NCBI GenBank assembly: GCA_001004905.1
Contig: LCRY01000001.1
Location: 10,461 to 74,460, forward strand
Origin: Parcubacteria group bacterium GW2011_GWA1_56_13
Lineage (GTDB): Bacteria > Patescibacteriota > Minisyncoccia > Phycocordibacterales > Phycocordibacteraceae
DNA: 64,000 nt
Direction: 5' to 3'
The notes under the pieces are model-generated. The model searched no databases. It was not told the origin of the DNA and saw only the letters and a list, made by a program, of their open reading frames with translations. This document shows positions 7,501-52,805 of this stretch, piece by piece. The position numbers and the translations under genes are program-made. Every line of letters starts with the position of its first letter. The first letter of the stretch is position 1.

Positions 7501-7612
7501 ACAATTCTTATTAAGGGTGTTGGTATTGGGGATATGGTAAAAAAATCAGATTTTATTTGTGCAACATTCCTTTTACTGAGTGCGCAATCTGTTGGTAATG
7601 ATGAAAAATAAC
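7501..7612. promoter_or_regulatory. AT-rich dnaA-dnaN intergenic region, candidate oriC element
   Basis: 112 bp of very AT-rich sequence. Flanked by DnaA-box TTATCCACA at 7659-7667 and GTTATCCAC (reverse) at 7697-7705 just inside the dnaA 3' end. Confidence 0.35.
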
Positions 7613-11513: not shown

Positions 11514-12209
11514 TCAATATCTCACACACGGATTTTGCACCGGCGTGGAACCCTGACCATCAGTGCAAGAAACTTGCGTGAGATTTTCTCTACAAAGGTC
11601 GTTGAAAAATTGTCGACAACCGTTTGAGTCCCTGGCACAAAAGTAACTTTTTCCATCAACAACGGCTTCTGGTTTCAGTTGAATACAGTAAGTACCCGTT
11701 TGAGGCGATGCATAGTAATCCTGCTGAAAACCAATGATCTGGCCGTTATTTATAGCGCGCGTACTTCCTGCTCGGACCGATTCCTGTACGTACTGCGTCT
11801 GTTGGGTTTGCGGTGAGCCGGACCTGGTATCAAGCGGGGGAAGGTTAACGGAGAGATTGAGGATACTCGGGTTGATGATGGAGAAGACGAGTGCGGGAGA
11901 GAGGACAAGCACGAGGCCGAAAATGGCGTTGTATATTTTTCCCTTGCTGTCCGTGAGAATACTGACATTATCTTGGTTCGTCGCTATTCGGAGCCCTTCC
12001 CAAACGATCATGAGGACGGCAAGTACCGCGGCAAGGCCAATGAGATATTTATAAAGATTGTTGAAAAATGCCGCGAGTCCTGCCGAGTCGGCCGTCACTC
12101 CTTGGGTCAGTCCCGGAATGGGGGCGAGCGGAATGAATCCATCCGCGAATGCATGCGGCGCTACGCCGAAGAAAAAGAGCGTCACGGCGATAAATAACAT
12201 TTTTTTCAT
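11514..12209 (-). CDS. Secreted/membrane protein with VirB2/TrbC-like topology and a Cys-rich C-terminal extension
   Basis: Signal peptide MKKMLFIAVTLFFFGVAPHAFA followed by two long hydrophobic segments; six Cys in the C-terminal 80 aa; 4-nt overlap with the upstream gene. Confidence 0.35.
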   Translation of the reverse strand: MKKMLFIAVTLFFFGVAPHAFADGFIPLAPIPGLTQGVTADSAGLAAFFNNLYKYLIGLAAVLAVLMIVWEGLRIATNQDNVSILTDSKGKIYNAIFGLVLVLSPALVFSIINPSILNLSVNLPPLDTRSGSPQTQQTQYVQESVRAGSTRAINNGQIIGFQQDYYASPQTGTYCIQLKPEAVVDGKSYFCARDSNGCRQFFNDLCRENLTQVSCTDGQGSTPVQNPCVRY

Positions 12210-14012: not shown

Positions 14013-15842
14013 CTATGCTTTTTTGTCCTGCTGGGCATACCGCTCTTTCTCCTGCTTGATGGCGAGGAGCTGGGACGGGTCGGACGTGATTATCTGGTCC
14101 TCGGTATAGCTAGCCACTACCTTGATGGCGACGTGTTTCAGGCCTGCGAAAAAGAGCCCTTCGCCCACGCCGGCCTCGAGCAGGAGATATTTTTCCTCGT
14201 CGGTGAGGTTGAATGTCTCCTGCAGAACGTTGATGGTCGTCGGCGACTGCTTGAGGAGGAGTTGGAGCGACGAGTTCGTGAGAATGGGCCGTCCGTAGGG
14301 GCTCTTGAGGAAGTCCTCCACGTCCTGCGTAATGGTGCAGACGCCCAGGTAGTATTTGCGCCCGCGCTTGGCCACCGAGTAGAGGAAGGAAGCGGTGTCT
14401 TCGCTCTTCATCATCCACCACGCCTCGTCAATGATGAGAAGACGCTTCTTCAGTTCGTGGCGCACGGCGTTCCAGATGTAGTGCGTGATGATGTACATCG
14501 CGACCGGCTTCAATTCGTCCTCCATGTCGCGCACCGAGAAGACGGCGAATTGCTGTTTGATGTCTATATTGGTCGGCTGGTTGAGAAATCCCGCCCAGGT
14601 GCCGCGCGTATATTTCGAGAGCCGTTCGACCAAGGACTCGCTCCCTTCCATGCCGGAGAGTACCTGCTCGAAGTCGGAGAGGAGCGGCGGTTCGGCGCCG
14701 GTAAAGTCGGCGTCGCCGGTGATGTCTTTGAGCGCGTACGTCTCGCTGATGGCGCGGTCGACGATAGCGTCCTCTTCGGGCGAGAGGCCGGAAAGCATGA
14801 TACGGAAGAGCCCGACGAGCGCGATGATGTTTGACCGCAGGATGTCTTTCGGGTCCTCGTCTTCTTTGACCGCCGGAAGATCGAACGGGTTTATGTGGTG
14901 CTCGGAGGAGAGCGAAATGTGGAACGATCGGCCGCCGGTCGCCTCTGCGAGCTGGTCATATTCGCGTTCCGGATCGATGACGATGACGTCGGTGCCGAAC
15001 ATGAGGGAGCGAAGCACTTCAAGCTTCGTCGCGTAGCTCTTCCCGGACCCGGACTTTGCGAAAATGACCGAGTTGTAATTCTCAAGCGAAAAGCGGTCGA
15101 AGAGAATAAGCGAAGAATTGTGCCGGTTGATGCCGTAGAGGATGCCACGGTCGCTCGTGAGGTCGAACGAGACAAAGGGGAAGAGCGAAGAGAGCGGCGA
15201 GGAATTCAGCTTCGAGTTAACAAGGAGCTCGTCGGTTCCGAGCGGAAGGCATGAACGGAACCCCTGCTCCTGCTGGAACAGCGCCGGTTTCGTGTAAACG
15301 AGTTTTGCATCGAGGATACCTCGGATATTTCCTTCGGTTTTGTCGATCTCCTCCTTTGAGTCGCCGTAGAGCGCGAGGTAGAGCCCCACTTCAAAGAGTT
15401 TTTCCTGTGCTTGCTGGAGATTGTTGCGCAGCGTCTCCAGATCCTGATAGGCGGTATCAAGCAGGGGGTCGCGCACGAGTCCCTTCGCCTCACGCTCGTT
15501 GATCTGACTCTCTACTTCCGCAACTTTTTTCTGGAAATCACGAAGTGCCTGCGCCGTCTCGATCGGATGGATGAATACGGAAACGTCGAGCACCTTATCA
15601 AGGTTAATGACCGGCGAGAACCATCCGTCGGTGAGGAACCGCGGGTAGGAAATGGTGTAAAAAGCGCGGACGAACTTCTCCCCGAGCTCGATCTCGCGCG
15701 GGCCGATGGAAAGAGCCGTCGGAGCGATCGTATCGACGAGTTCCAAGGAACCCTGTTTGTAGATATCTTTCGGCAAGACCGGCACGACCATCTGGTCTTG
15801 CGAGTGTTCCTTCTTCCGGTTCAAAAAATCGAGGAGTGACAT
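14013..15842 (-). CDS. VirB4/TrbE/CagE-family type IV secretion ATPase (C-terminal ATPase portion)
   Basis: Walker A FAKSGSGKSY; DEAW-type Walker B LLIIDEAWWMM; 609 aa. Confidence 0.8.
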   Translation of the reverse strand: MSLLDFLNRKKEHSQDQMVVPVLPKDIYKQGSLELVDTIAPTALSIGPREIELGEKFVRAFYTISYPRFLTDGWFSPVINLDKVLDVSVFIHPIETAQALRDFQKKVAEVESQINEREAKGLVRDPLLDTAYQDLETLRNNLQQAQEKLFEVGLYLALYGDSKEEIDKTEGNIRGILDAKLVYTKPALFQQEQGFRSCLPLGTDELLVNSKLNSSPLSSLFPFVSFDLTSDRGILYGINRHNSSLILFDRFSLENYNSVIFAKSGSGKSYATKLEVLRSLMFGTDVIVIDPEREYDQLAEATGGRSFHISLSSEHHINPFDLPAVKEDEDPKDILRSNIIALVGLFRIMLSGLSPEEDAIVDRAISETYALKDITGDADFTGAEPPLLSDFEQVLSGMEGSESLVERLSKYTRGTWAGFLNQPTNIDIKQQFAVFSVRDMEDELKPVAMYIITHYIWNAVRHELKKRLLIIDEAWWMMKSEDTASFLYSVAKRGRKYYLGVCTITQDVEDFLKSPYGRPILTNSSLQLLLKQSPTTINVLQETFNLTDEEKYLLLEAGVGEGLFFAGLKHVAIKVVASYTEDQIITSDPSQLLAIKQEKERYAQQDKKA

Positions 15843-17569: not shown

Positions 17570-18223
17570 TCATATGCTCCCGCCTGTCAGAAGTCCAAAC
17601 AGCCAGAGGACGAAATGAAAGAACGGCGTGGCAAAAATGTACGAGAAGATGATGAGGAACAGGACGAGAGAGAGTGCTCCGGCAGTACGGACCTGCTGCT
17701 CGAAGCGGCTCAAGCCAGGCGCGAGGTGCCACGGCAGCGCGGAACGCAGCGCGGTGAATCCGTCGAGCGGCGGGAATGGGATGAGATTGAAGAGGCCGAG
17801 GAAGAGGTTTATGAACGCGATGGTCGCGGCCAAAGAAAGCGCGGTTGCCGACAGCAGAGTGTCGCCCGTAGCGAGCGGAACAGAGCCAACACGGACGATG
17901 AGGCCGAAAATGACCGCAAGGAGGATATTCGTGCCGCTTCCGGCGACGGCAACGAGCGTTTCTCCCCAGTGCGGATTCCTCAGGTTGAAGGGATTGTATG
18001 GGACGGGCTTTGCCCAGCCGAAGAGGATGGGTGACCCCGTAAAGACGAGCAGCGCCGGAATGACGACGGAGCCCATGAGGTCGATGTGGGGAAGCGGATT
18101 GAGCGTGAGGCGCCCGGCGAGTCGGGCGGTCGGGTCGCCGAGCGAATTGGCGGCGTAGCCGTGCGCCACCTCATGCGCTATGACGGAAAAGACAAGAATG
18201 ACGAGAGAAAGAATACTGTCCAT
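17570..18223 (-). CDS. Site-2 protease family (peptidase M50) membrane metalloprotease
   Basis: HEVAHGYAA HExxH motif within the first TM region; multiple TM helices; 217 aa. Confidence 0.8.
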   Translation of the reverse strand: MDSILSLVILVFSVIAHEVAHGYAANSLGDPTARLAGRLTLNPLPHIDLMGSVVIPALLVFTGSPILFGWAKPVPYNPFNLRNPHWGETLVAVAGSGTNILLAVIFGLIVRVGSVPLATGDTLLSATALSLAATIAFINLFLGLFNLIPFPPLDGFTALRSALPWHLAPGLSRFEQQVRTAGALSLVLFLIIFSYIFATPFFHFVLWLFGLLTGGSI

Positions 18224-18331: not shown

Positions 18332-18574
18332 ATGGCAAGACAATGTGAAATTACCGGGAAAAGCACGCAAATCGGCGGGCGGTACTCTAACCGCACCCGC
18401 GCGACGCAGTTCAACCCGACCGGCAAAGGGCGCCGCAAGGCAAATCTCCAGCGCCGCCGCATCTACGTCGCCGAGCTCGGCAAGACCGTCATCGTCGATG
18501 TTTCCGTAAAAGGGCTTAAAACTATCAAGAAAAACGGTGCATTCGCCGCGCTCAAGAAGGCAGGAGTGATTTAA
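18332..18574 (+). CDS. rpmB: 50S ribosomal protein L28
   Basis: 80 aa MARQCEITGKSTQIGGRYSNRTRATQFNPTGKGRRKANLQRRRIYVAELGKTVIVDVSVKGLKTIKKNGAFAALKKAGVI; classic L28; lies within the longer track ORF 18086-18574. Confidence 0.9.
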   Translation: MARQCEITGKSTQIGGRYSNRTRATQFNPTGKGRRKANLQRRRIYVAELGKTVIVDVSVKGLKTIKKNGAFAALKKAGVI

Positions 18575-18581
18575 TAACGGC

Positions 18582-18615
18582 AAAAAAGAGCGCCGGACCA
18601 TTCGTTCGGCGCTCT
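18582..18615 (-). terminator. Terminator of cassette gene A (minus strand)
   Basis: Hairpin agagcgccg-gaccattcgtt-cggcgctct preceded on the plus strand by AAAAAA (a T-run on the minus strand). Confidence 0.5.
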
Positions 18616-18629
18616 GCTCACGGGCTCTG

Positions 18630-19343
18630 TCATTGCTTGCGTGCATCAATGATCGATGCGATCCGATCAATCATCCGTTCGGTAAGATGGTCTTTGTGGA
18701 AAATCGCGCACCCCTCCTCGAGATTTCGTAACCGGCAGATACTCCAGTATTCGTCCAAGGTGAACGGGATACCGAGGTACCGAGACCATGGGCAGACTGA
18801 ATAGTGAGTCCAGTCGACAGCCGTGCGACTTCCGAACCCTTGCGTATTCCACGCATGAAGCATCGGTCGGACAATCGATCCGTACGCGAGACCCTCGACG
18901 TACAGAATCGGAGGCGGAATAGCTGCCCATACTCGATCGTTTTCCATTGCCAGATGTGCGAGTAGCCATGCGTTTTCGAAGCAATGTCTGGGCCGAGGTT
19001 CGAAGGGAACGGTGGTCCATTCGTACGGCACGTAGTCCACTCCATATTCGAGCAATAGCCTCAGCCCAGCAGGGTGGACGCTGTTCAAGATCTTGAGATA
19101 GCCGGTGAATTGTTCTCCTCGCGCTCTTCTACCCGCTACCTGCTCGATAAAAGCGCGCAAGCTTGTATCGTGCCCGAGCGGGAATTTCCGAGCGAATCTC
19201 CGCGAAAGAAGATTACGGAAGTTCTTCCCTTGCGCGCTCATCAGCCATTTCCAATCGGTACGTTGGTCTATGTTTATTTCTACGGGTCGGCGCATGGCCT
19301 CCTCCCTATCAAGTTGTCCGCTGCGGACTCTACCAGATTGCAT
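18630..19343 (-). CDS. Cassette gene A: hypothetical protein with a transglutaminase-like/papain-like Cys-His-Asp motif arrangement
   Basis: HCFENAWLLAHLAMENDRVWAAIPPPILYVEG (compare TGase core G.C..FA.L...L..GIPAR.V.G), then MLHAWNT (HAW) and AVDWT (D); 237 aa. Confidence 0.45.
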   Translation of the reverse strand: MQSGRVRSGQLDREEAMRRPVEINIDQRTDWKWLMSAQGKNFRNLLSRRFARKFPLGHDTSLRAFIEQVAGRRARGEQFTGYLKILNSVHPAGLRLLLEYGVDYVPYEWTTVPFEPRPRHCFENAWLLAHLAMENDRVWAAIPPPILYVEGLAYGSIVRPMLHAWNTQGFGSRTAVDWTHYSVCPWSRYLGIPFTLDEYWSICRLRNLEEGCAIFHKDHLTERMIDRIASIIDARKQ

Positions 19344-19361
19344 ACAGTAATTCTAGTCGGC

Positions 19362-19409
19362 AAGAAGCACGGCGCCTTCGCCGCCCTCAAAAAAGCCGGT
19401 CGCATTTAA
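19362..19409 (+). repeat. Degenerate direct copy no. 2 of the rpmB 3' end
   Basis: aagaagcacggcgccttcgccgccctcaaaaaagccggtcgcatttaa encodes KKHGAFAALKKAGRI*; compare the native rpmB end at 18527-18574 encoding KKNGAFAALKKAGVI*. Confidence 0.85.
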
Positions 19410-19424
19410 ATTCACAAAACAAAA

Positions 19425-19449
19425 AGGACGGCCCGCCGTCCTTTTTTTG
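19425..19449. terminator. Bidirectional intrinsic terminator after rpmB-3' copy 2
   Basis: aggacggc-ccg-gccgtcct with an A-run upstream and TTTTTTT downstream. Confidence 0.6.
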
Positions 19450-19458
19450 GTCACGCCC

Positions 19459-20028
19459 TCACACCACCCGGCGCTCGGAAAATACTTTACCGAGAAGGCT
19501 CCCGTCCGTCTGGATGAGAGATTCAGTAATCGTCCACCCTGCCGCACGCATTTCAGCGTGGTACATTTGGCGTACCTCGTGTCGAGTCAAGATGATTCGA
19601 CCGTCCGGGCCAATGACGCGCGCCCAATATGGACCCTCACCCCAATCAAGCCACTGGTACGCGAAATTGATTGCGTTCAGTAGCGACTGGGACGTGTAGT
19701 TTTCGATGAAAGTCGGATTGAGCGTTGGACCGCAGACGACGAACGATGCGACTTTTGTCGGGAGGCCATACCCGCCTCTTGCCGCGTCCCAAACGCGCCG
19801 AGTCGTCCATGGCGAGACCACTATCTTCCCTTCGAAACTGTAGATCCCTGCCCACTGGGCTCTGCCGCCCCACATGAGTAAATGGGCGACTAGTTCCATA
19901 AGCAGGCGATTCTGAACCTGAATGATCTTGTCCTTCTGCGGGAGGCAGACTCTTAGGACGAATGACCGTCCGTTAAGCGCCTTCTTGGGGTAGGAACCGT
20001 AGCTTTCAACGTCGTTCGGTCGGTCCAT
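19459..20028 (-). CDS. Cassette gene B: diverged paralog of cassette gene A lacking the Cys/His/Asp positions
   Basis: LVAHLLMWGGRAQWAGIYSFEG aligns with LLAHLAMENDRVWAAI..YVEG of gene A; the catalytic C/H/D equivalents are replaced; 189 aa. Confidence 0.45.
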   Translation of the reverse strand: MDRPNDVESYGSYPKKALNGRSFVLRVCLPQKDKIIQVQNRLLMELVAHLLMWGGRAQWAGIYSFEGKIVVSPWTTRRVWDAARGGYGLPTKVASFVVCGPTLNPTFIENYTSQSLLNAINFAYQWLDWGEGPYWARVIGPDGRIILTRHEVRQMYHAEMRAAGWTITESLIQTDGSLLGKVFSERRVV

Positions 20029-20084
20029 CGGATTCTCCTTTAAGAGCAGTTCAGCTCGGACTATACTATGCGAAAGGTATTTTT

Positions 20085-20131
20085 AAAAGCACGGCGTCTT
20101 CGCCACTCTCAAACGCGCCGGTCGGATTTAA
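20085..20131 (+). repeat. Degenerate direct copy no. 3 of the rpmB 3' end
   Basis: aaaagcacggcgtcttcgccactctcaaacgcgccggtcggatttaa encodes KHGVFATLKRAGRI*. Confidence 0.8.
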
Positions 20132-20180
20132 AGCATAGATTCTTGTAATTTAATGAAGCGCTTGTTATCTTGGGAACGGA

Positions 20181-20481: not shown

Positions 20482-21180
20482 CTACTTTTTTGTAATCATT
20501 TGACCGTTTGAAGTGTACATACTCGCGGGAGTTGAAGAAGAAGAGATAACGAGGTCCGGCGGAGGAAAACCCGCATTAAGCACAGCAAGCCATGCGGCGG
20601 CGCGCGGCGGCAGGTCGTTTTGGATGAGGATGGAAGTCGAACCATAAGAAATGCGCAGCACGACCGCACCATCGGCCGTGTTCAGGGCGGAGGCGGTGTT
20701 TGGCGGCCAGAGCACATCGGCATATGCGCCGTCGCCAAGCGAAAAGCGCTGGCCGCGCTCGGCCGTGAAATGGCGTAGGCCCCGCTGCGCGCTTGCCGCC
20801 GCGGCAAGCGCGGCTTCCTGGCTTCGAGTTCCTTCCGCGCGCGGGCGCACGAGCGCCGAAACGCGATAGCGTTCCATAATGTGCGGCAATCCGCCGGACG
20901 AATCGGCGGAAACGGTCGTGAGCACGATGCTGTCAATGTTTCTGTGCCACATCGGCAGGGCCGAACCGAGTTCGCGTAATATTCCGGCGTCCTTCCCGGC
21001 GTTTATAAGCAGCGTTGTGCCGCTCGGGCTCCGCACCAACACCGCGTTATCCTTGTCTGTATCGAGCACGCGTACTTCGAGCACCGGCAACGCGAATGCG
21101 GTCCGATACACGAGGACATTTCCGGCGACGAAAGCGACAAGTACCACAACATAGAAACCCACAACTTCTACACGGGGCAT
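20482..21180 (-). CDS. ComEC C-terminal metallo-beta-lactamase-like domain protein, catalytically degenerate and encoded separately
   Basis: LEVRVLDTDKDNAVLVRSPSGTTLLINAG...IDSIVLTTVSADSSGG follows the ComEC MBL-domain pattern; the HxHxDH metal ligands are replaced; N-terminal TM. Confidence 0.55.
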   Translation of the reverse strand: MPRVEVVGFYVVVLVAFVAGNVLVYRTAFALPVLEVRVLDTDKDNAVLVRSPSGTTLLINAGKDAGILRELGSALPMWHRNIDSIVLTTVSADSSGGLPHIMERYRVSALVRPRAEGTRSQEAALAAAASAQRGLRHFTAERGQRFSLGDGAYADVLWPPNTASALNTADGAVVLRISYGSTSILIQNDLPPRAAAWLAVLNAGFPPPDLVISSSSTPASMYTSNGQMITKK

Positions 21181-21209
21181 ACATAAAGTATATGGTACAT
21201 TCTATCTCT

Positions 21210-21800
21210 ATGAACTACTCACCAAAGACATTCAAGCTCCCGAAACTCGAGGGAATTTCCGAGAAGCAGCTCAAAGTGCATCTTGCTTTGTACGAAGGAT
21301 ACGTGAAGCACGTAAATCTCATCATGGATACCATTGCCAAGCAGGGTAAGGCCGATGACGAGGGCGGGAAATATGCGACCGCGGAATTGCGCCGCCGTCT
21401 CGCGTTCGAGTTCGACGGCATGCGCATGCACGAGTACTACTTCGAACAATTCGAAGGCGAAAAAGGAGGGAGTTCGGATTCAGGACTCGGGAAGGCGGCA
21501 AAGGAAAAATACGGCAGCGGCGAGAAGTTTATTGAACACATCAAGGAAGTCGCCGGTACGCGCGGCATCGGCTGGGTCGTCGTCTATAAGGACGCGCGTG
21601 CGGATACTATCCACACCGTTTTCGTCACCGATCACGAGCTCGGCCAGCTCGCCGGGCTCCCTATCATCCTCGCGCTCGACCTGTGGGAGCACGCGTATAT
21701 GGTGGATTATGTTCCGGCCGAAAAGAAAAACTACATTGACGCTTCCCTTGCGAACGTCAATTGGAGCGTCGTCGAAAAGCGTTTCGACGAAGCCAAGTAA
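21210..21800 (+). CDS. Fe/Mn superoxide dismutase family protein
   Basis: C-terminal PIILALDLWEHAYMVDYVPAEKKNYIDASLANVNWSVVEKRF matches the SOD D.WEHAY...NW..V..R motif; N-terminal LPKLEG...YVKHVN region; overlaps the ComEC ORF 3' end convergently by about 70 nt. Confidence 0.7.
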   Translation: MNYSPKTFKLPKLEGISEKQLKVHLALYEGYVKHVNLIMDTIAKQGKADDEGGKYATAELRRRLAFEFDGMRMHEYYFEQFEGEKGGSSDSGLGKAAKEKYGSGEKFIEHIKEVAGTRGIGWVVVYKDARADTIHTVFVTDHELGQLAGLPIILALDLWEHAYMVDYVPAEKKNYIDASLANVNWSVVEKRFDEAK

Positions 21801-23263
21801 ATCAATCCGGCGTACGCAACGAGTGCAAGCCAGAACGGGAACGGCGGGAGTGAGAATGCCGCAAGCGGTAGCGCGGCGGACTCGCGCGCGATAAATAAGA
21901 GGTAAGCATTCGCAAGGTACGCGGGGAATGCGAGCACGATGCCAATGAGCGGGGCCATAGAACCGAACAGCATTCCCGCAAAGCCCGCGAGGGCGGAAGA
22001 CCCCATCGCGAGCGGGACAAACGGCATCACGAGCAGGTTTGCCGGAATGGAAACGAGCGAGAGATTGCCGGTGTCGTAGAGGAGAAGCGGCAGCACGGCG
22101 ATCTGCGCCGAAAGCGTGGTCGCCACCGCATTTTTCCAGAATGAGCTTTTCATAAACGACAAAAACGTCTCGACGATGGGAGCGAGCCAGATGAGTCCGG
22201 TAGTTGCCGCCACCGAAAGGCCGAAGCCGGGGTCAAAGACGAGGTAGAGAGGGTTCCAGAGGAGCATGAGGAACACAACGAGGAGGAGCGCCCGACCGGC
22301 CGCATAGGTGCGGCCGGTCGCGCGGGCGTAGAGCGCGATGAGCGCCATGAGCGCGGCGCGCAGCGCCGTCGCCGAGAACCCAGCGATACCCACGAACATA
22401 AGCAGGGCAAACGCTCCGGCCGCCGCGCCCCAACGCCTCGGGAGCGCAGTGAGCGCGAGCGCGGCTATCACCCACTCGGCAACGACCATGACGTTGTAGC
22501 CGGAGAGCACGATTATCTGCACGAGGCCGCTGCGGACGAAATCTTCCTTTACTTTCTCGCCCAATCCCGATTTGCCGCCGATGACGATGCCGCTGGCCAG
22601 GGATGCATGGGGCTCGGGTAATGTCGCGGCGATACCATCAAGGAACGCATGCTTTACGCGCGCAAGCGCGGCCGGAAGCGAGTACCACGGCGCTGGCGAT
22701 TCGACGCGCAGGTATGCGAAATTGAGCATAAAACGCACGCCGTCGCGCTCCAGATATTTGTCGTAGCGGAATATGCGGCCATTATCGTCGGCGAACGGTT
22801 CCGGGATGGCGAGCGTTCCCGACACGAATACTCGGTCGCCGACGGCGACGCTTGGATAGCGCGGTGCGACTGCCAGCATCGTCGTTGATTCATTCCCTTT
22901 TGAAACTCGTATTTCGACGCGCTGGTTCGCATCACGCACATCGGGGTCGCTCACCACGATGCCTTCATACGAAACTCGCTGCCCCACTTCGGCGACGAAG
23001 ACCGTCGGCAGAGGCGATTCGGAAAGCGCCATGCGCACCGCGCCGAGCGCGGCCACGAGGCAAAAAGCGATGGCGAGCGCATAAAATATATGCCGCTTGA
23101 AGTAGTAGAACGCGCCGAACACACCCGCCGCGAGCACAAAAAATACCGCCGGTTCCCATCCCGACGTGAGCGACCGTACGAACACCCCTCCCGCGAATCC
23201 TATGACAACGGCAATAAGTGCACCCACGTAAAGTATGGTAGCGCAACCTGGGTCTTGACACAT
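21731..23263 (-). CDS. comEC: DNA internalisation-related competence protein ComEC/Rec2 (DUF4131 plus Competence domain, no MBL domain)
   Basis: 510 aa polytopic; Competence-domain motifs LALTALPRRWGAAAGAFALLMFVGIAGFSATALRAALMALIALYA...LLWNPLYLV.DPGF. Confidence 0.8.
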   Translation of the reverse strand: MCQDPGCATILYVGALIAVVIGFAGGVFVRSLTSGWEPAVFFVLAAGVFGAFYYFKRHIFYALAIAFCLVAALGAVRMALSESPLPTVFVAEVGQRVSYEGIVVSDPDVRDANQRVEIRVSKGNESTTMLAVAPRYPSVAVGDRVFVSGTLAIPEPFADDNGRIFRYDKYLERDGVRFMLNFAYLRVESPAPWYSLPAALARVKHAFLDGIAATLPEPHASLASGIVIGGKSGLGEKVKEDFVRSGLVQIIVLSGYNVMVVAEWVIAALALTALPRRWGAAAGAFALLMFVGIAGFSATALRAALMALIALYARATGRTYAAGRALLLVVFLMLLWNPLYLVFDPGFGLSVAATTGLIWLAPIVETFLSFMKSSFWKNAVATTLSAQIAVLPLLLYDTGNLSLVSIPANLLVMPFVPLAMGSSALAGFAGMLFGSMAPLIGIVLAFPAYLANAYLLFIARESAALPLAAFSLPPFPFWLALVAYAGLIYLASSKRFSTTLQLTFAREASM

Positions 23264-23309
23264 TTCCCATATAAAGATAACATATCCGTTATGTTAGCCC
23301 CGGTACATT

Positions 23310-23681
23310 ATGGAATATAGCTTCTGGCAGACCCGACAAGGGGGAACGCCAGTTCTAGATGACTTACAAGCTGTAGCCCAAGCCGATGCTAACTCAGGAA
23401 AATCTTACTGGCTCCAGCTGAGCAAGGTCGAGAAATATACCTATCAGCAATTAATAAGGAAACTTCTCAAGAAGCTCAAAGGGAAGAATCCCTACAAGCT
23501 GTTTGAACTAAGATTTGCCCTGCCCCGGAAGATAGCAAGGACCTTTTGCGTCATCAGTCGTGATTCGAAATTATGGTTGTTACATCTGGTTATTAAGAAG
23601 AAAGATGGAACTAAGCGTTCTGATATAAAGATTGCTGAAGAAAGGGCAAAAATCCTAGAACAGACAATCCATTATCTGTAA
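23310..23681 (+). CDS. HigB/Gp49-family (RelE/ParE superfamily) toxin-like protein
   Basis: LFELRFALPRKIARTFCVISRDSKLWLLHLVIKKKDGTKRSDIKIAEERAKIL matches the Gp49/HigB core (ElR...yRi.yf....ivLLhgf.KK); low-GC islet. Confidence 0.6.
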   Translation: MEYSFWQTRQGGTPVLDDLQAVAQADANSGKSYWLQLSKVEKYTYQQLIRKLLKKLKGKNPYKLFELRFALPRKIARTFCVISRDSKLWLLHLVIKKKDGTKRSDIKIAEERAKILEQTIHYL

Positions 23682-23691
23682 ATGAAACAAT

Positions 23692-24138
23692 ATGAAGATA
23701 CAACACGCAAAATCGATACTGCTTGAAAATGATATGATTCGAAAATCATTTGGGAAAAATGATCTTGATAGCATCAAGATGAATGTCGGTCTGCAGATTC
23801 TTGAGCTGAGGTTAATCAAGAACCTTACTCAAAAGCAGCTTGCCAAAAAAATCGGTACTAAGCAGCCGAGTGTTGCGCGTGTTGAAAGAGGAGCTATGGC
23901 CCCTAGTTTAACGTTCCTATATAAAATAGCGGCTGCGGTTGATACGGAATTAATTCCACCTAAATTCGCAGTTGTTGAAAGGAACGAACAACTATATCAA
24001 ACGAATAATTTTCCTTCCTACCATTTCAGCAATGTGCAGAGTCAAGGAAAGCTGCAAAAAAATGCTGAAATTTCACATGTGCAACTTCCAAGTACTCGGG
24101 AGATATTCTCGTTTGATCATCAATTAGTTACACGGTAA
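23692..24138 (+). CDS. XRE-family HTH protein, putative HigA-like antitoxin
   Basis: HTH LRLIKNLTQKQLAKKIGTKQPSVARVERG; immediately downstream of the toxin-like gene; low GC. Confidence 0.6.
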   Translation: MKIQHAKSILLENDMIRKSFGKNDLDSIKMNVGLQILELRLIKNLTQKQLAKKIGTKQPSVARVERGAMAPSLTFLYKIAAAVDTELIPPKFAVVERNEQLYQTNNFPSYHFSNVQSQGKLQKNAEISHVQLPSTREIFSFDHQLVTR

Positions 24139-24149
24139 TTCTCAAAAAC

Positions 24150-24623
24150 ATGGAAAAAGAAAACATACTTAGATACATGGGCGGCATAGTTTGTGAATCT
24201 TCTGCAGTCGACCAACAGACCCAAAGTCTTTCTGCCTTCAAGATAATTGACCAAATTAATGTGAACATTAAATCAACCGACCCGACGGTAACATCAAAAT
24301 CACTACAAAAAATAACAATCCCTCTTTCGCTACAAGTTATTTCTCTATGGAAAAGAAATAAACAATCGGATCAAGGGAGGGACATCGAAGGAAAAATCGT
24401 TGTGGAGATTATTGATCCCCGAGGTGAAGTCCTCGCAAAACATCCTATTAATGTCCTACTGCCATTAAACAAAATTCGTTCCAGAACAATTCTTAATATA
24501 CAGGGAATGCCTGTATCAACTACTGGTGAGTATTGTGTGCAGATGAAAGAGGTTAACACAAACGGGAAAGAATCATCACCTCTGGCCAAGCTTTGTTTCG
24601 ATTTAATTCTAAACAAGGAGTGA
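24150..24623 (+). CDS. Hypothetical protein in the low-GC islet
   Basis: 157 aa; AT-rich codon usage like its neighbours; no recognisable motif. Confidence 0.4.
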   Translation: MEKENILRYMGGIVCESSAVDQQTQSLSAFKIIDQINVNIKSTDPTVTSKSLQKITIPLSLQVISLWKRNKQSDQGRDIEGKIVVEIIDPRGEVLAKHPINVLLPLNKIRSRTILNIQGMPVSTTGEYCVQMKEVNTNGKESSPLAKLCFDLILNKE

Positions 24624-24663
24624 CTATCACAATAGTAAAAACGCTAGAAATAATGTCAGGAAT

Positions 24664-25089
24664 CTAGAATCCAGAACCTCGGTCCATGGCCCCGTTCGCA
24701 AGAGCATCGGCGTCGGTGTTTTCTTCCCGCGGGACGTGAGTGAAGGAAACGGTACCAAAGGCAGAAGCGAGTTGGCCGAGGCGCGCCTGCTGTTCCTTCA
24801 AGACCGGATGTTTTACTTTATATTCTCCGCGCATCTGCTTTACGATAAGCTCGCTATCGAGCTTCACCTTTACCTCCGTCGTGTCGTGTTCCGAAAGCGG
24901 TACGAGCTTCAGGAGCTCCTCAAAGGCGAGAATGACCGCTTCGTATTCTGCGTAATTGTTCGTGCGCGTGCCGAGGAATTTGGAGACGCTCGCGACCGAA
25001 TTGCCAAGCTCGTCCCGTATCATCGCTCCCGCGCCCGCAGGCCCCGGGTTTCCCCGCGCTCCCCCGTCGGCATGGATGGTGAACTTCAT
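24664..25089 (-). CDS. rnhA: Ribonuclease HI
   Basis: 141 aa; HADGGARGNPGPAG...YAEYEA...THVPREENTDADALA DEDD motif pattern. Confidence 0.85.
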   Translation of the reverse strand: MKFTIHADGGARGNPGPAGAGAMIRDELGNSVASVSKFLGTRTNNYAEYEAVILAFEELLKLVPLSEHDTTEVKVKLDSELIVKQMRGEYKVKHPVLKEQQARLGQLASAFGTVSFTHVPREENTDADALANGAMDRGSGF

Positions 25090-25096
25090 ACCGCTA

Positions 25097-26890
25097 TCAT
25101 ACCAATCGGATGTCTAAGAGTCGCAGGCGGACAGGATTCCCGCGGCTGAAGGTGTCGCGCTCCACGTGCGCGAGCATATTCACGCGGCTTCCTCCTTCTA
25201 ACGCGCCTGCGGTGCGCGCGACGGGTCCTTTTGCGAAAAACGTGACCGCGTCGATGCTCCTCCTCCCTTCTTCCGCCGATATTTTTAATTTTAAATGTTC
25301 TTCGCCTTTTCCGAAGCGAGAAACCTCCCGCACGGCGACCTCGCGTAGCAGAAACACCGGTTTGGGGTTCTCTATGCCGAAAGGGGCGAGCTTCTCGACC
25401 TTTTTCAGGAGCGTACCGTCTATTTCTTCCGGCGTAACGACCGCGTCGGCGTGCATGGAGAGATCATCTTCGAGCGGTTTCCCTTTCGTGAGATGGTCGT
25501 GCGCCTCGACGAGCCGGTCTTCCAGATAAAACACTTCCGTATCGCGCACGGTGAAACCGCCCGCGGCGCGGTGCCCGCCGAATTCCACGAACGTGCCCTC
25601 GGTCGCCTGCATGAGTTCCAAAATGTGCGTGGTACCGCCGTTGCGCACCGAGCCCTTCAAGCTCAAGTTCCCTTCCCGCCCCCACAAAAATACGGGCCGC
25701 TCGTATTCGTCCGCGATGTTCCCGGCGACGAGGCCCAAGAGCGCCGGGCGCCACGCCGGATCTCCGAGCGCGATGACCGACCGCACGGTTCCGCGCTCCT
25801 TGATGCGCGTATGCACCGCGCGCGTAATGGCGCCCGCCTCGGCTTTCCGCGTCCGGTTCGCCTTCTCCAATTTTTTTGCGAGCTCGTCGGCCTCATTCTC
25901 GTCGGTGGTGGTGAACAGGCGGAACGCGTCGCGCGCGTCGCCGATGCGGCTCGCGGCGTTCACTCTCGGCGCGAGCATGAAACCGACGTCGTCTTCGGAG
26001 AGCGTGCGCTGGTCAACGCGCATCCCGCGGCACAGCTTTTGGAGCCCGATGCGCGGCGACTTGCGCATCACCATGAGCCCGAAGGTCGCGAGTACGCGAT
26101 TTTCGTCCACGAGCGGCACCATGTCCGCGATGGTGGCGAGCCCGACCATGTCGAGGAGCCATTTCTCCCACCCTTCCGGCACTTTCTGGCGCAATTGCGG
26201 TTCGCAGGCGAGCGTCGCGCAGACGAGCTTCCACGCGACGCCCGAACCGCACAGCCCGTGGAACGGATACGTTTCATCGGCCCGGGCATTCGGATCGAGC
26301 ACCGCAAACGCTTTTGGCAATATCGGCCCTTCGACTTCGCTTGAGGCAGGCAGGTGGTGGTCGGTAACGATGACGTCCATGCCGAGTTCGCTTGCGCGCG
26401 CGACCGGCGCGCTGTCGGTAATGCCGGAATCCACCGTGACGATAAGTTTCACCCCGCGCTCCGCGAGCTTCTCGACGCCGTCCTCGTTCATCCCGTAGCC
26501 CTCGTTGTGGCGGTGCGGGATGTAATTCTCGAAATCCGCACCGGCTTTTTTGAGGAAATCGTGCATCACGACGGCGCCCGGGATGCCGTCGCAGTCGTAA
26601 TCGCTCCACACGGCGATTTTTTCTCCCGAAAGGATAGCCGTCGCAAGCCGCTTCGCGGCAAGCGGCATGTCGGTCATGAGGAACGGGTCGTGCAGGTGTT
26701 TGGCGTACGAGGGATTGAGGAATGTCTCGGCGGCTTCACGCGTCACGACGCCGCGGCGCGAAAGGAGCGCCGCAGTGAGCTCGTCGTACGCGCCGAGCTC
26801 TTCGCGAAGCAGGGCGGACAAGGGCTCGTGGAGCGGGAACATATAGGCCGTATTGTATACTGACCCGATGAAAGACTGTATCTTCTGCAA
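25097..26890 (-). CDS. recJ: Single-stranded-DNA-specific exonuclease RecJ
   Basis: DHH motifs DYDCDGI, VTDHH; DHHA1 region; 597 aa. Confidence 0.9.
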   Translation of the reverse strand: MQKIQSFIGSVYNTAYMFPLHEPLSALLREELGAYDELTAALLSRRGVVTREAAETFLNPSYAKHLHDPFLMTDMPLAAKRLATAILSGEKIAVWSDYDCDGIPGAVVMHDFLKKAGADFENYIPHRHNEGYGMNEDGVEKLAERGVKLIVTVDSGITDSAPVARASELGMDVIVTDHHLPASSEVEGPILPKAFAVLDPNARADETYPFHGLCGSGVAWKLVCATLACEPQLRQKVPEGWEKWLLDMVGLATIADMVPLVDENRVLATFGLMVMRKSPRIGLQKLCRGMRVDQRTLSEDDVGFMLAPRVNAASRIGDARDAFRLFTTTDENEADELAKKLEKANRTRKAEAGAITRAVHTRIKERGTVRSVIALGDPAWRPALLGLVAGNIADEYERPVFLWGREGNLSLKGSVRNGGTTHILELMQATEGTFVEFGGHRAAGGFTVRDTEVFYLEDRLVEAHDHLTKGKPLEDDLSMHADAVVTPEEIDGTLLKKVEKLAPFGIENPKPVFLLREVAVREVSRFGKGEEHLKLKISAEEGRRSIDAVTFFAKGPVARTAGALEGGSRVNMLAHVERDTFSRGNPVRLRLLDIRLV

Positions 26891-29298: not shown

Positions 29299-30618
29299 TC
29301 ACCGGGTGATGGCGTAGGAGCCGGGAATGAAGGCCCAGCTCCCGCCCGGGCCTGCCTGGAACGCGGTATTGGGAAGGCCGGTGTCGTAGGTGACGGTTGC
29401 GGATTGCGAAAGGGAGATTTTATACCCGGTCGCCTCCTTCACGTTCACGCTCTGGCCGAGCGTGAGGCGTCCGTGGCTTGCATAGGCGACGAGCGCGGAC
29501 GCTCCCTGTCCGAGCGAGACGGCGACGTTCGACCCGCCTTGTTCCGCGCTCCTGTTCTGCGAAATGAGGAATACGAACGACCGCGGCGCGCCGGACCCGA
29601 AGAACTCGGTACTTTGGCCGACGGTGATGACGCCGCTACCCGTTGGGTTGGATGGATTATCCGCGATGATGGCCACGTTCTGGTCGCCGAGAGCCGGATC
29701 GATCCGTATCGTCGGCCCGGTTTGCGTGGTGATGTTGCCGGTCACCCAGATCGGTCCCGTGACCGTAAGCACGCCGGAAGAACTCTTCACGATCAGGTTG
29801 CAGGCGATCTTCTTTGGGCCGAGCGCCACGTCCGTACTGATCGTATAGTCGCCGTGGCTATCGCACGAACTGATCGTACCGCCCTCCGCCGCATACGATT
29901 CCCAAAGGGCGATCTGCTCGTCCGAGATCGGCAGCGCGACCTCCGCCTGGTCCGGACTATTCGGGTACAAGGTACCGTTGACGGTCGTGTTGACCTTGGT
30001 GACGTAATAGGCGTCCCCATCGATGGTCGTCGGCTGGCTCCCTAATCCGATGGTGTGCGCATACGCGGAGCTCGTGGCATGAACCCCGTATATGATGCCG
30101 TTCGGACCGGAGGAAATGACATCTCCGTATATATAATTCCCGCCGCTACCGGTGACCGGGCCGCTCGAGAACACGTTGCCGATTATTTTCGAAGTGTTGT
30201 TCATGGAAAAGCCGCCATTTCCCGCCTGGATGCCGTAATGGAACGCGATGTTGGCATTGTCGAGCCCGACATCGGCTTGGACGATTTTCGTTGCCGTTGG
30301 ATTTTGGTTATCCGGCACATATCCCGTTGCGGTGATCCGCTTGATGTTGGGGTCAATGTCCTGGACCGCTATAGTGAACATCCCGTTGCCGAGGGCCGTG
30401 TTGGCTTCTCCGGTGTAGGCAGGGTTCTGATTCAGTTGATACGTCGCTTCGTCAAACGCCCCCTCGGCGATCGCGAGTGCTTGCGCAGCGGCGACCGTCA
30501 CCCGTTCAGCCCGTCCGTATGAAGTTAAATACCCCACGAGCGCGGTGGAAACGGTCATGAATATGCCGGCAAAAACGAGCGCGAGCAGCATGATTTGTCC
30601 TTTTGTGTATGCGGTCAT
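29299..30618 (-). CDS. Large Gly/Ser-rich membrane-anchored protein, last gene of the pilus operon (putative pilus-associated or tip protein)
   Basis: N-terminal hydrophobic anchor KGQIMLLALVFAGIFMTVSTALVGYL without the conserved pilin Glu5; Gly-rich beta-repeat region; 4-nt overlap with the upstream pilin gene. Confidence 0.45.
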   Translation of the reverse strand: MTAYTKGQIMLLALVFAGIFMTVSTALVGYLTSYGRAERVTVAAAQALAIAEGAFDEATYQLNQNPAYTGEANTALGNGMFTIAVQDIDPNIKRITATGYVPDNQNPTATKIVQADVGLDNANIAFHYGIQAGNGGFSMNNTSKIIGNVFSSGPVTGSGGNYIYGDVISSGPNGIIYGVHATSSAYAHTIGLGSQPTTIDGDAYYVTKVNTTVNGTLYPNSPDQAEVALPISDEQIALWESYAAEGGTISSCDSHGDYTISTDVALGPKKIACNLIVKSSSGVLTVTGPIWVTGNITTQTGPTIRIDPALGDQNVAIIADNPSNPTGSGVITVGQSTEFFGSGAPRSFVFLISQNRSAEQGGSNVAVSLGQGASALVAYASHGRLTLGQSVNVKEATGYKISLSQSATVTYDTGLPNTAFQAGPGGSWAFIPGSYAITR

Positions 30619-31169
30619 GGCGAGAAATTACGCAGGTACAACTGCTCGCGCACACGGCTTTGCACCGTCTGCTCTTTGTATTGCGCGCGGGTTTGTATAT
30701 CGGCTATGACATTCGTGACCTGTGAAAAATCAGCATCGTCATACGTGAAAGAAACGGCATCCAGTGTGCCGCTTAGGCGAGTGAGTCCGGACACGCGTAC
30801 GCTCTGTGCATCTGCAAGCACAAGGCGGTAAAACTCGGTGGAAGATGCGTAAAATACGACATAATCTTTCGCGCTTTCCACAATGGCACCGGAACCATTG
30901 AACGCGGGAAGCGAAAGCACGAGAGTAGTCGAGCCGGACGCGTAGGACGTACCGGAGAAGGCGTGGGAAGCGAGCACCCGGTCCGCGGGAAGTACGGCCG
31001 CCTCCAGCGCGTTCAGCGCCGCGCCGGAGGAGCCGGCGGTCGCAATGAACGCCTGCTGGTATCCGTACATCGAATTGAAAACAAAAAACAAGTTTACCAG
31101 CGCCATCAGCACCACGACACTCACGCTCATGACGACGACCGCTTCGATAAGGGTGAATCCCTGTTTCAT
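30615..31169 (-). CDS. Prepilin-type N-terminal cleavage/methylation domain protein (type IV pilin or pseudopilin). The ORF extends to 31241, but the likely start is MKQGFTLIE at 31169.
   Basis: KQG|FTLIEAVVVMSVSVVVL class III signal peptide with Glu5. Confidence 0.7.
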   Translation of the reverse strand: MKQGFTLIEAVVVMSVSVVVLMALVNLFFVFNSMYGYQQAFIATAGSSGAALNALEAAVLPADRVLASHAFSGTSYASGSTTLVLSLPAFNGSGAIVESAKDYVVFYASSTEFYRLVLADAQSVRVSGLTRLSGTLDAVSFTYDDADFSQVTNVIADIQTRAQYKEQTVQSRVREQLYLRNFSP

Positions 31170-31555
31170 TTTAGTCCGGAATCCTCCGTTATGAGAGTCG
31201 TGAGCGACACTGTCCGGGTCACGAGGCCTGCTCCTCTCCACGAGACGCCCACGTCGACACGCTTGGTGTCGTCGTTGAAAGCCGTGCTGGTCAGGGACGA
31301 GGTGCTCGAAGCGAGCGAGGCGAGGAGTGTGTCCTCGAACGGGCCATCCGGCGGCAGCGCCGCATAACCGCCGGCGCGCAGCCGTTCGATCTCGCCGCGG
31401 ACGATCTTCAGTGCCAGGTCCTGATCGCGCACTTCCCTGCCGTTAATGGGAATGCGTTCGAGCAGGACCGAAGTCGCCACTATCATCAGGCCTATGATGG
31501 CGGTAGCGACGGTTACTTCGATGAGAGAGAATCCTCGCGGCCGGGGCGACACCAT
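31166..31555 (-). CDS. Prepilin-type N-terminal cleavage/methylation domain protein (type IV pilin or pseudopilin)
   Basis: RG|FSLIEVTVATAIIGL class III signal peptide; 129 aa. Confidence 0.7.
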   Translation of the reverse strand: MVSPRPRGFSLIEVTVATAIIGLMIVATSVLLERIPINGREVRDQDLALKIVRGEIERLRAGGYAALPPDGPFEDTLLASLASSTSSLTSTAFNDDTKRVDVGVSWRGAGLVTRTVSLTTLITEDSGLK

Positions 31556-31556: not shown

Positions 31557-32774
31557 CTAGATGGCCGAAGAGAGCGAATAAATCGGCGCGATCATCGATA
31601 CGGCGAACACGCCAACGGCGCCGCCGATGAGGAGCATGAGGACGGGCTCGATAATGGTCGAGAGATCTTTTGTTTTCTCTGCAACATCCCCTTCGTAGAA
31701 CTCCGCGATCTGCTTCAGCATCTCGGCCACCTTGCCGGTTTCCTCACCGACCGCGAGCATGTCGCTCATGAGGATCGGATACAGTCTGGCATGCTCGGCA
31801 AACGCCGCGGAGAGCAGTTCCCCTTTCTTCACATGTGCCTGGGCCTCCTCGACGACGTTGGCGAACGCTTCGGCATGTACGACCTCGCGGGTGATGGCAA
31901 GCGCCTGGAGCACCGGCACGCCCGCCGACAGGAGCGAGGAGAGTGTGCGGGAAGCGCGTGCGGCGTAGGTCTCACGTACGAGTTCGTTGAGGACGGGGAT
32001 TGTGAGCGCTATCGCGAGCACGAGCCGCGCTCCTATCTTTGATCGGACGAATGCGACGGTTCCCAGAACGAGTGCAACAAGCGAAAGGAGCACGAGCGAT
32101 ATATGCGCCACCATGAAGTCCGAAAGGGCGACGATGATGCGCGTGGCAAGCGGTATCTGGACCCCGAGTGCCGTAAAGGTCTTGGTCAGGGTCGGTACGA
32201 CATAAATAAGCATCAGGACGCTCACGACGACGATGGCCGTGATGACGATTGCCGGGTAGATCATCGCGCCTTTTATTTTTCGTACCAGCTCCTCCGATCG
32301 TTCCATCTGGAGGGCAACGACGGTAAGCGACTCGGCAAGAGAACCCGACTCCTCGCCCGCCTGCACCATCGCAATGAACACTTCCGGGAACACTTTCGGA
32401 TATGCCGACAGCGCTTCGTGGAACGACGATCCTTTCTTAACCGATTCGGAGAGCCCGGCGGCGATCCTCTTTAGGTAGGTATTGCTCGACTGCCGTTCGA
32501 TAATGGACAGGGCGCGCGAAACGGAGAGCCCGGCACCCAGCATGGCGGAGAGATTCTTCGCGGTGCGCACCACCTCCATGCGTTTTACCCCCGTTCCGAT
32601 CGAAATGTTGAACCGAGAAAGCGCGCCAGGACTGAATCCCCGCTTCTCCGCGATTGCAACGACGAACCCTCCTTCGTTATGTATCTGGTGGTACACATCG
32701 AAGCGCGACGACGCCTCGACGACGCGTGTTTCATCCGGCGCGCCTTCTTTCCGTACCGTAATGCGGAACTTCAT
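31557..32774 (-). CDS. pilC: Type IV pilus / T2SS platform protein, PilC/GspF family
   Basis: 405 aa; duplicated GspF domains; three TM segments; follows pilB with a 2-nt gap. Confidence 0.85.
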   Translation of the reverse strand: MKFRITVRKEGAPDETRVVEASSRFDVYHQIHNEGGFVVAIAEKRGFSPGALSRFNISIGTGVKRMEVVRTAKNLSAMLGAGLSVSRALSIIERQSSNTYLKRIAAGLSESVKKGSSFHEALSAYPKVFPEVFIAMVQAGEESGSLAESLTVVALQMERSEELVRKIKGAMIYPAIVITAIVVVSVLMLIYVVPTLTKTFTALGVQIPLATRIIVALSDFMVAHISLVLLSLVALVLGTVAFVRSKIGARLVLAIALTIPVLNELVRETYAARASRTLSSLLSAGVPVLQALAITREVVHAEAFANVVEEAQAHVKKGELLSAAFAEHARLYPILMSDMLAVGEETGKVAEMLKQIAEFYEGDVAEKTKDLSTIIEPVLMLLIGGAVGVFAVSMIAPIYSLSSAI

Positions 32775-52446: not shown

Positions 52447-52794
52447 ATGAAAATGAAACACTTTAAGCGGGAGCTCGAGGCCGAGAAAGCGAAGCTCGAA
52501 GCGCAGATGGGGACTATCGGCCGTAAGAGCCCGAGCGTTCCGGGCGACTGGGAGCCCGTGCCCTCGGAAACCGGCATGGAGTCGGACCTTGCTGACCAAG
52601 CGGACGTCGTTATGAGCCGCGAGAGCAACTCGGCCATCCTCGCCGATCTCGAAGCCCGTTACGACACCATTCTTGCCGCGCTTTCGAGGATCGAAAAAAA
52701 GAAATACGGAAAGTGCGAAGTATGCGGCGAGGAAATAGAGGGGGCGCGTCTCGATGCCGATCCCGCCGCTACGACCTGCATGAAGCATTTATAA
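52447..52794 (+). CDS. DksA/TraR-family C4 zinc-finger protein
   Basis: Coiled-coil N-terminus and C-terminal CEVCGEEI...[10 protein letters not shown] zinc finger. Confidence 0.7.
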
Positions 52795-52805
52795 TCCCGC
52801 CTTCG

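Follow-up and report, generated by a model that had tools for sequence, protein, structure and literature searches.

In natural transformation, DNA is universally imported across the inner membrane by ComEC. The window considered here (a stretch of 64,000 nucleotides from contig LCRY01000001.1 of Parcubacteria group bacterium GW2011_GWA1_56_13) carries on its minus strand a gene for the channel part of ComEC, designated comEC-N, and downstream of it a separate gene for a protein resembling the metallo-beta-lactamase (MBL) domain of ComEC, designated the MBL-like gene. Between the two, on the opposite strand, lies a superoxide dismutase (SOD) gene whose 3' end runs into that of comEC-N (Table 1). 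An initial annotation of the window had read this arrangement as a comEC that was interrupted or rearranged, and it is the meaning of that split, for the protein and for the lineage, that is taken up below.

Table 1. Features of the split comEC locus and its surroundings (positions are those of the window)
Feature	Position	Strand	Size	Basis or remark
comEC-N, channel subunit of split ComEC	21731-23263	-	510 aa	Pfam/TIGRFAM matches
MBL-like gene: standalone, membrane-anchored, catalytically degenerate, shortened ComEC-type MBL domain	20482-21180	-	232 aa	
N-terminal transmembrane helix of the MBL-like protein (residues 3-28)	21097-21174	-		AlphaFold2 helix
LPMWHRNID loop	20932-20958	-		Best-conserved motif among the degenerate proteins; P76, W78 and R80 do not vary in the closest relatives
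Degenerate metal motif LTTVSADSSGG (canonical THPDxDHxGG)	20890-20922	-		Alignments
Junction ISSSSTPASMYTSNG, site of a deletion of ~50-70 residues	20503-20547	-		Gaps against the MBL domains of intact standalone proteins and of full-length ComECs
Fe/Mn superoxide dismutase	21210-21800	+	196 aa	Between the two comEC halves, opposite strand
Convergent overlap of comEC-N and SOD 3' ends	21731-21800		70 nt	Open reading frame coordinates
Divergent intergenic spacer, SOD start to MBL-like start	21181-21209		29 bp	
rnhA	24664-25089	-		Conserved upstream neighbour (Pfam, synteny)
recJ	25097-26890	-		Conserved upstream neighbour (Pfam, synteny)
rpmB/L28	18332-18574	+		Conserved downstream
M50 peptidase	17570-18223	-		Conserved downstream; end of syntenic block

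The channel gene and the MBL-like gene

The product of comEC-N consists of two N-terminal transmembrane (TM) helices and an OB fold/DUF4131, followed by a complete Competence channel domain. The Pfam match to Competence (PF03772; 1e-43, 150 bits against a cutoff of 23) spans profile positions 2-265 of 270, DUF4131 (PF13567, the OB fold) matches at 6e-12 (46 bits against a cutoff of 31.6), and Pfam finds no Lactamase_B domain in the 510-residue protein, which is the domain content that the initial annotation had assigned to it. (An AlphaFold2 (AF2) model of a fused chain, made by concatenating the window comEC-N and MBL-like proteins and aligning them with full-length ComECs and comEC-N homologues, has a beta-barrel segment at residues 96-189, as is expected of an OB fold.) The N-terminal model TIGR00360 (ComEC_N-term) matches at 8e-20, and the score against TIGR00361, the equivalog model of full ComEC/Rec2, is 61.5 bits, below the cutoff of 190. 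What this means operationally is that comEC-N is not itself a three-domain ComEC/Rec2, with its MBL domain on the same polypeptide and a score above the TIGR00361 cutoff. MBL-less homologues of ~500 residues form at least 120 clusters at 65% identity or more, and the dN/dS ratio of comEC-N is 0.17-0.21. The channel half is intact, is strongly conserved and can be presumed to go on serving as a DNA conduit. Its C-terminus is probably cytoplasmic, since lysine and arginine residues follow the last helix. For one pair of relatives (loci L016, 2578-4107, and L017, 3917-5446) the dS of comEC-N is 0.13 and that of flanking genes 0.4-1.5, which suggests a recent recombinational exchange or an unusual synonymous constraint.

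The 232-residue MBL-like protein is only faintly recognized by standard models: Lactamase_B_2 matches at E=0.0019 (18.3 bits, under the Pfam gathering cutoff of 27) and positions 436-584 of the TIGR00361 ComEC_Rec2 model at E=7.6e-5 (21 bits, cutoff 190). With a family profile built from this protein and 18 homologues, the Moorella glycerini ComEC beta-lactamase-like domain (crystal structure 9ic4) is matched at E=3.7e-19, and a full-length ComEC (30bt), TM helix included, at 1.2e-16; ordinary beta-lactamases reach just ~1e-3 with the same profile. The AF2 model made from the family alignment (pLDDT 88.4, pTM 0.82) is a single long N-terminal helix followed by a two-sheet sandwich, and Foldseek again places 9ic4 first among PDB structures (E=2e-14, TMq 0.71), ahead of RNase J, Pce and other MBL folds. 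The fold is thus the alpha-beta/beta-alpha fold of the MBL family in the form closest to the ComEC C-terminal domain. The initial annotation had recognized the ComEC MBL pattern in this protein and had also named a lack of similarity to the MBL fold as the result that would speak against it; the profile and structure comparisons agree on the former and point away from the latter. The N-terminal helix aligns to 30bt residues 511-533, the last TM helix ahead of the MBL domain, and to the corresponding helix of the full-length ComECs P0250, P0279, P0282 and P0284; the tail of comEC-N aligns with the preceding cytoplasmic loop of the same four proteins. This match of the TM helices marks the MBL-like protein as derived from ComEC. 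Annotation pipelines already name some of these standalone proteins "ComEC/Rec2 family", and Pfam and TIGRFAM scans of the MBL-like protein found no motif or domain newly gained.

The catalytic set of the ComEC nuclease comprises H598-x-D600-x-D602-H603, D700 and H725 (Stedman et al. 2025, PMC12455585). Most alanine mutants of the metal ligands are inactive (H598A, D602A, H603A and D700A virtually so), the equivalent Legionella mutants are untransformable, and H725 is a putative DNA-binding residue (PMC12455585). A conserved loop 2 comprises R688, F689 and F691 in Legionella, where the F689A/F691A mutation abolishes transformation (PMC12455585). In the window protein, with M. glycerini numbering, TTVSADSSGG stands where THPDxDHxGG is expected: H598 has become T, and D600 and H603 have become S. 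Three of the four HxDxDH ligands are gone; D602 is kept in the window protein and is not conserved among close relatives, and the same is true of the equivalent of D700 (in the sequence IQND). The residues deleted at the junction listed in Table 1 held HHGS/H725 and the NxFGHP 'loop 2' pin, and the segment from HHGS to GHP is missing throughout the short family. What the degenerate family does conserve is the first sheet and an LRxLGxxLPxWxR loop, which can tentatively be equated with ComEC 'loop 1'. With the metal ligands lost, and with them the stretch that bears the substrate histidine and the loop-2 pin, two-metal (Mn2+-dependent) nuclease activity is very probably absent from the window protein. 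The earlier proposal of a catalytically dead MBL domain, made on the loss of metal ligands, is strengthened by the deletion.

The dismutase gene and its overlap with comEC-N

The gene between the two halves encodes an ordinary, functional-looking SOD. Its C-terminal domain matches Sod_Fe_C (PF02777) at 6.4e-19 (68.3 bits against a cutoff of 20.9), the D-x-W-E-H motif being DLWEH at residues 157-161, and the Fe/Mn SOD that the initial annotation had placed here on the strength of its C-terminal motif is thereby secured. The match to Sod_Fe_N (PF00081) is 19 bits, under the cutoff of 27, and no NCBIfam equivalog cutoff is reached; the N-terminal region nevertheless aligns full-length to the best PDB relative, the S. 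solfataricus FeSOD (1wb8, 2.7e-24). H24, H74, D157 and H161 align with H33, H84 and the D and H of DEFEH in 1wb8 (residue numbers counted on the alignment), which we take to be the metal ligands of that enzyme. All four are conserved in 12 of 12 related loci and the gateway tyrosine (Y31) is retained. The resemblance to SODs of the archaeal/thermophile type (1wb8; A. pyrophilus 1coj) lies in this full-length alignment, the four ligands and the gateway tyrosine; the difference lies in the N-terminal hairpin, in which GHH after the first ligand has become AL-Y, and in the low Sod_Fe_N score. The suspicion that the N-terminal metal-ligand region is atypical is accordingly half right: the hairpin is divergent, whereas both of its ligands, H24 and H74, are kept, and a ligand-deficient SOD can be set aside. 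The dN/dS ratio of the gene is ~0.1. SOD genes are common in Patescibacteria of oxic groundwater (PMC8672522).

The convergent overlap of the SOD and comEC-N 3' ends, previously put at about 70 nt, measures exactly that. Read in one direction, the overlap gives the comEC-N tail ...TTLQLTFAREASM; read in the other, it gives the SOD C-terminus YIDASLANVNWSVVEKRFDEAK. Of 51 related loci, 50 have an overlap of 67-103 nt (mode 70). Conservation of the comEC-N tail (SKRFSTTxQLxFAKKASI) is limited to loci in which it is antisense to the universally conserved SOD C-terminus (YIDAFxANLNWSVVEKRF), and the tail is unrelated in L005 and in loci that lack SOD; for this reason it is read as an overprinted by-product, not as a functional extension of the channel protein. 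A hairpin with a 9-bp stem, TCGTCGAAA-AGCG-TTTCGACGA, lies inside the overlap at 21766-21787, where its two strands read ...VVEKRFD... and ...SSKRFST... in translation. It was considered as a bidirectional terminator and dropped, being only partly conserved in relatives; it may be a coincidence of coding. At its other end, the SOD gene is separated from the divergent MBL-like gene by a spacer that is of similar shortness in relatives (commonly 17-32 bp). A weak minus-strand promoter-like sequence there (TTCATA-16-TATACT, 21214-21187) is a match to consensus only.

Conservation of the layout and decay of the MBL-like gene

The order HIT - recJ - rnhA - comEC-N - SOD (opposite strand) - MBL gene - rpmB (opposite strand) - M50 peptidase is a conserved block. 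Genome loci for comparison were collected partly with a seven-sequence alignment of MBL-like proteins (seven genome loci). The block is seen in L001, L002, L007-L009, L012, L014, L016, L017 and L019, which are contigs encoding MBL-like homologues, and the same layout, with an intact MBL gene, is found in the more distant L005 and L020. A metagenome scan with a comEC-N alignment provided 80 further loci at 55-77% identity, 69 of them non-redundant. In 35 of these 69, comEC-N and SOD are accompanied by a degenerate MBL-like reading frame of 132-232 residues (mode ~165). In another 16 (16 of the 56 informative loci), rpmB comes directly after SOD and the MBL gene is gone. Five have comEC-N adjoining the MBL-like gene without SOD. 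The remainder either end just past SOD (7 of 69) or have neither gene, mostly at contig ends after comEC-N (6 of 69). (The MBL-like gene is deleted, with SOD followed by rpmB or occasionally by a small unrelated insert, in L071, L073-L075, L078-L081, L083, L085 and L086; further loci with the deletion are L088, L089, L093, L096, L097, L101 and L102. The SOD-less arrangement is listed for L037, L040, L041 and L057, and also for L066 and L067.) Stop and start codons of comEC-N and the MBL-like gene overlap by 4 nt in three SOD-less loci (L037, L040 and L057).

The comparison with related genomes that the initial annotation had called for thus finds the same arrangement in about 50 independent Parcubacteria contigs. 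The split layout is ancient and lineage-wide in Parcubacteria, and the proposal of an interrupted or rearranged comEC with a nested SOD stands in that form, as an old event of the lineage rather than a local insertion. Fission is independent of the presence of SOD, since loci without SOD are also split; such loci fit either insertion of SOD after the split or its later excision.

The fate of the MBL domain after its separation can be followed across the family. A profile search over 1.84 billion representatives gave 394 matches at E<=1e-30. Among the best 150 of these 394, which were classified, full-length ComECs account for only 4 and the rest are standalone proteins. By motif, the same 150 include 46 full-size proteins with H.D.DH and HHG both intact, 21 full-size proteins in which one or both are missing, and 71 proteins of 260 residues or fewer that lack both. 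Loci with the intact form are exemplified by L005, where a standalone MBL protein of 291 residues has THPDKDH and HHGS and three opposite-strand genes, SOD among them, occupy the gap, and by L020, where the protein has 297 residues. These forms can be arranged as a decay series, from intact (~290 residues) through loss of ligands (~265-290) and trimming (132-232) to absence, with the window protein at the long end of the trimmed class. Since L005, L020 and the 46 representatives keep an intact standalone MBL, the split preceded inactivation. An intact standalone ComEC-type MBL protein of 302 residues (P0277, with HPHDDH and HHG) is also encoded at 5001-5909 of L021, with no comEC-N within 5 kb; its context indicates that standalone ComEC-like nucleases are not confined to the split-comEC locus.

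Selection on the MBL-like gene was estimated by the Nei-Gojobori and YN00 methods in two independent close pairs (the window and L018; L016 and L017). The dN/dS ratio (omega) is 0.24 between the window and L018 (dN 0.16, dS 0.69, 231 codons) and 0.27-0.35 between L016 and L017; for eight neighbouring genes in the same genomes it is 0.04-0.21. Taken separately, the TM helix, the first sheet and the C-terminal part give 0.15-0.40 each, and dS exceeds dN by many standard errors, the standard errors being rough. On these values of omega (0.24-0.35) purifying selection on the gene is real, if relaxed, and the gene is not a neutral pseudogene.

Upstream, the end of rnhA and the beginning of comEC-N share 4 nt in L001, L016 and L017, and recJ, rnhA and comEC-N form an apparent operon in relatives. 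In the window rnhA and comEC-N are kept apart by an island on the opposite strand (23264-24663), low in GC content at 0.37-0.41 (against 0.55-0.65), which interrupts what is elsewhere an operon. It encodes a Gp49/HigB-like toxin (23310-23681), an HTH_3 antitoxin-like protein (23692-24138) and a 157-residue reading frame without a match. The slot between the MBL-like gene and rpmB also contains extra DNA. The 46-nt 3' end of rpmB is present in three direct copies with 72-85% identity (18530-18575, the genuine end; 19365-19410; 20087-20132), which bound two tandem cassettes of ~835 and 722 bp (18530-20132), each with one minus-strand reading frame without a family match (237 residues, 18630-19343; 189 residues, 19459-20028). 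The cargo of this slot differs among relatives: a DNA methylase and a 345-residue reading frame in L017, HD_4 in L020, none in L001, L016 and L019. The appearance of the slot is that of a hot spot for insertions, with duplication of the target.

Other functions of DNA uptake and recombination are encoded in the window: a chromosomal type IV secretion system (T4SS) cluster (TraG/VirB4-like, 14013-15842; T4SS pilin, 11514-12209), type IV pilus genes (PilB-like, 23-1795 and 32777-34555; PilC, 31557-32774; pilin, 30615-31241), a YifB/ComM-family ATPase (52713-54380), and RuvB and RuvC. Since they share the window with the dnaA-dnaN region (6400-8962), these functions are clustered near the origin. 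The pilus genes, the ComM-type ATPase and the recJ-rnhA pair upstream of comEC-N are compatible with a working uptake pathway.

The split ComEC and DNA uptake

The locus probably specifies a two-gene (fissioned) ComEC whose nuclease subunit is now a dispensable pseudoenzyme. In this reading an ancestor of this Parcubacteria/Paceibacteria lineage would have had its comEC broken after the channel domain, in the cytoplasmic loop that leads to the last TM helix; the SOD gene would occupy the gap on the opposite strand, its 3' end overprinted by the comEC-N tail. The second gene would add one TM helix, and its MBL-fold ectodomain is predicted to be placed outside the membrane as in the fused protein. 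The two halves may be thought of as associating physically, and relatives with intact motifs would then have a ComEC that is in two pieces but complete. In the window clade the ectodomain should be unable to bind two metals and, lacking the pin loop, could be at most a structural or DNA-guiding accessory. The most likely role of the MBL-like protein, judged from its sequence features, is that of a non-catalytic accessory of the channel, and it would be a dispensable one, since about a quarter of related lineages have deleted the gene. The non-imported strand, if it is degraded at all, would require another enzyme.

Several observations weigh against this reading. The MBL-like gene diverges faster than every one of its neighbours (38-53% identity against 55-78%), shrinks stepwise (291, 265, ~230, ~165 and 132 residues) and is missing from 16 of the 56 informative loci; any role must accordingly be weak or conditional. 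The inactivity of its product is read from its sequence. The fused-chain model has a pLDDT of 81 and a pTM of 0.64, with the linker and TM helix (residues 500-540) at low confidence. Insertion of SOD may have caused the fission or come after it, five loci being split without SOD. Finally, the window offers no candidate for a replacement nuclease, its nucleases being only of cytoplasmic type (Xth, RecJ, RuvC, RNase H and RNase Y).

The first of these points, together with the loss of every catalytic feature, would also be expected if the 232-residue reading frame were a functionless relic on its way to deletion, kept open by slow decay or by its overlap with signals of the SOD gene. We consider this rather unlikely. 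The omega values of the two independent pairs are below 0.4 in each third of the protein instead of being close to 1, more than 70 representatives, clustered at 50%, have an intact reading frame, and a set of motifs (LRxLGxxLPxWxR, RY and DVLWPP) is invariant. A promoter of the SOD gene could constrain the first few dozen bases only, and not the entire reading frame. It is a good deal less probable that the MBL-like protein has been recruited to a role other than uptake (as an envelope or ligand-binding pseudoenzyme, for example) and stands beside comEC-N by historical accident. Retention of a confident compact fold (pLDDT 88) despite loss of the active site, the existence of standalone ComEC-type MBL proteins away from comEC (P0277), and the divergent arrangement with SOD, whose start codon is 29 bp away (a possible sign of co-regulation with SOD instead of comEC-N), would all fit such a recruitment. 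On the other hand, positive evidence of another function, in the form of a gained motif or domain, was not found, and the place beside comEC-N is kept where SOD is missing, with a 4-nt overlap that suggests translational coupling. That the split is an artefact of assembly or frameshift, or a recent strain-specific insertion of SOD into a continuous comEC, has only the unusual overlap in its favour and a probability close to nil, being refuted by the comparative data: overlaps of 67-103 nt recur in 50 of 51 loci, the arrangement extends over about 50 independent assemblies at 55-77% comEC-N identity, identical proteins are found on 9 and on 4 independent contigs (recorded from Parcubacteria group bacterium GW2011_GWB1_57_6 and Candidatus Kaiserbacteria), and SOD is full-length, under strong purifying selection and in possession of all its ligands, so that the assembly problem and the frame artefact of which the initial annotation had warned are both excluded.

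The two-gene ComEC, then, retains the modules of canonical ComEC/Rec2 (B. subtilis, L. pneumophila, Moorella; 9ic4, 30bt) in their order, OB/DUF4131, Competence, and TM helix with extracytoplasmic MBL domain. It differs in being made as two polypeptides from two genes with a SOD gene between them, and in having, in the window, an MBL domain ~60 residues shorter that lacks H598, D600, H603, H725 and loop 2. MBL-less ComECs and ComECs with an inactive MBL domain are already known, S. pneumoniae and H. pylori being the precedents for a ComEC without a nuclease of its own (PMC12455585; PMC5031224). The MBL domain of S. pneumoniae ComEC has non-conservative substitutions of metal ligands and is presumed inactive (PMC5031224; PMC12455585), which makes it similar to that of the window; unlike the window domain, which is separate and truncated and which some relatives have lost altogether, it is full-length and fused, and the non-transported strand is degraded by EndA, a nuclease with no counterpart seen among the genes of the 64-kb window that was searched. 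H. pylori ComEC stops just before the MBL domain, and the window channel protein likewise has no such domain. The H. pylori genome has no ComEC-type MBL domain anywhere (PMC5031224), whereas the window keeps a remnant, and relatives sometimes an intact neighbouring gene. Uptake in H. pylori uses the ComB T4SS, and a T4SS cluster (TraG/VirB4-like ATPase and T4SS pilin) is likewise found near comEC-N in the window and in relatives; a part for it in DNA uptake here is pure speculation by analogy. Recent work has argued that the ComEC nuclease domain performs best when in cis with the OB fold and that Legionella cannot do without its catalytic residues and loop 2 (PMC12455585). For Patescibacteria, natural transformation through ComEC is now established (PMC10633639).

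The split ComEC does not reveal a new kind of system. A search of the literature found no paper on the fission, on SOD between the halves, on the conserved 70-nt overlap or on the series from intact to absent MBL domain, and the split is unmentioned in Pimentel & Zhang 2018, Baker 2016, Stedman 2025 and a survey of MBL proteins in the candidate phyla radiation. The overlap is a clean case of conserved convergent gene overlap in a streamlined genome. A caution also follows for surveys, which may score such genomes as "ComEC lacking the MBL domain" or overlook the remnant.

A more far-reaching conjecture is that a two-subunit ComEC, from which the nuclease subunit is repeatedly discarded, extends across a large clade of Patescibacteria and serves uptake without a ComEC-linked nuclease, a route to which the conserved recJ-rnhA-comEC-N operon would then point, the imported single-stranded DNA being salvaged for nucleotides by cytoplasmic RecJ instead of, or in addition to, serving transformation, with the dead MBL domain acting as a non-catalytic cap that guides or gates DNA. 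This remains doubtful as a whole; if it were true, the intact, dead and absent states in close relatives would constitute a natural deletion series that probes the need for the ComEC nuclease domain. In any event, a large patescibacterial clade has separated, inactivated, trimmed and finally deleted the nuclease domain of its DNA importer, the channel half remaining highly conserved throughout, and thereby offers a natural split-protein and deletion series for testing which functions of ComEC require that domain.

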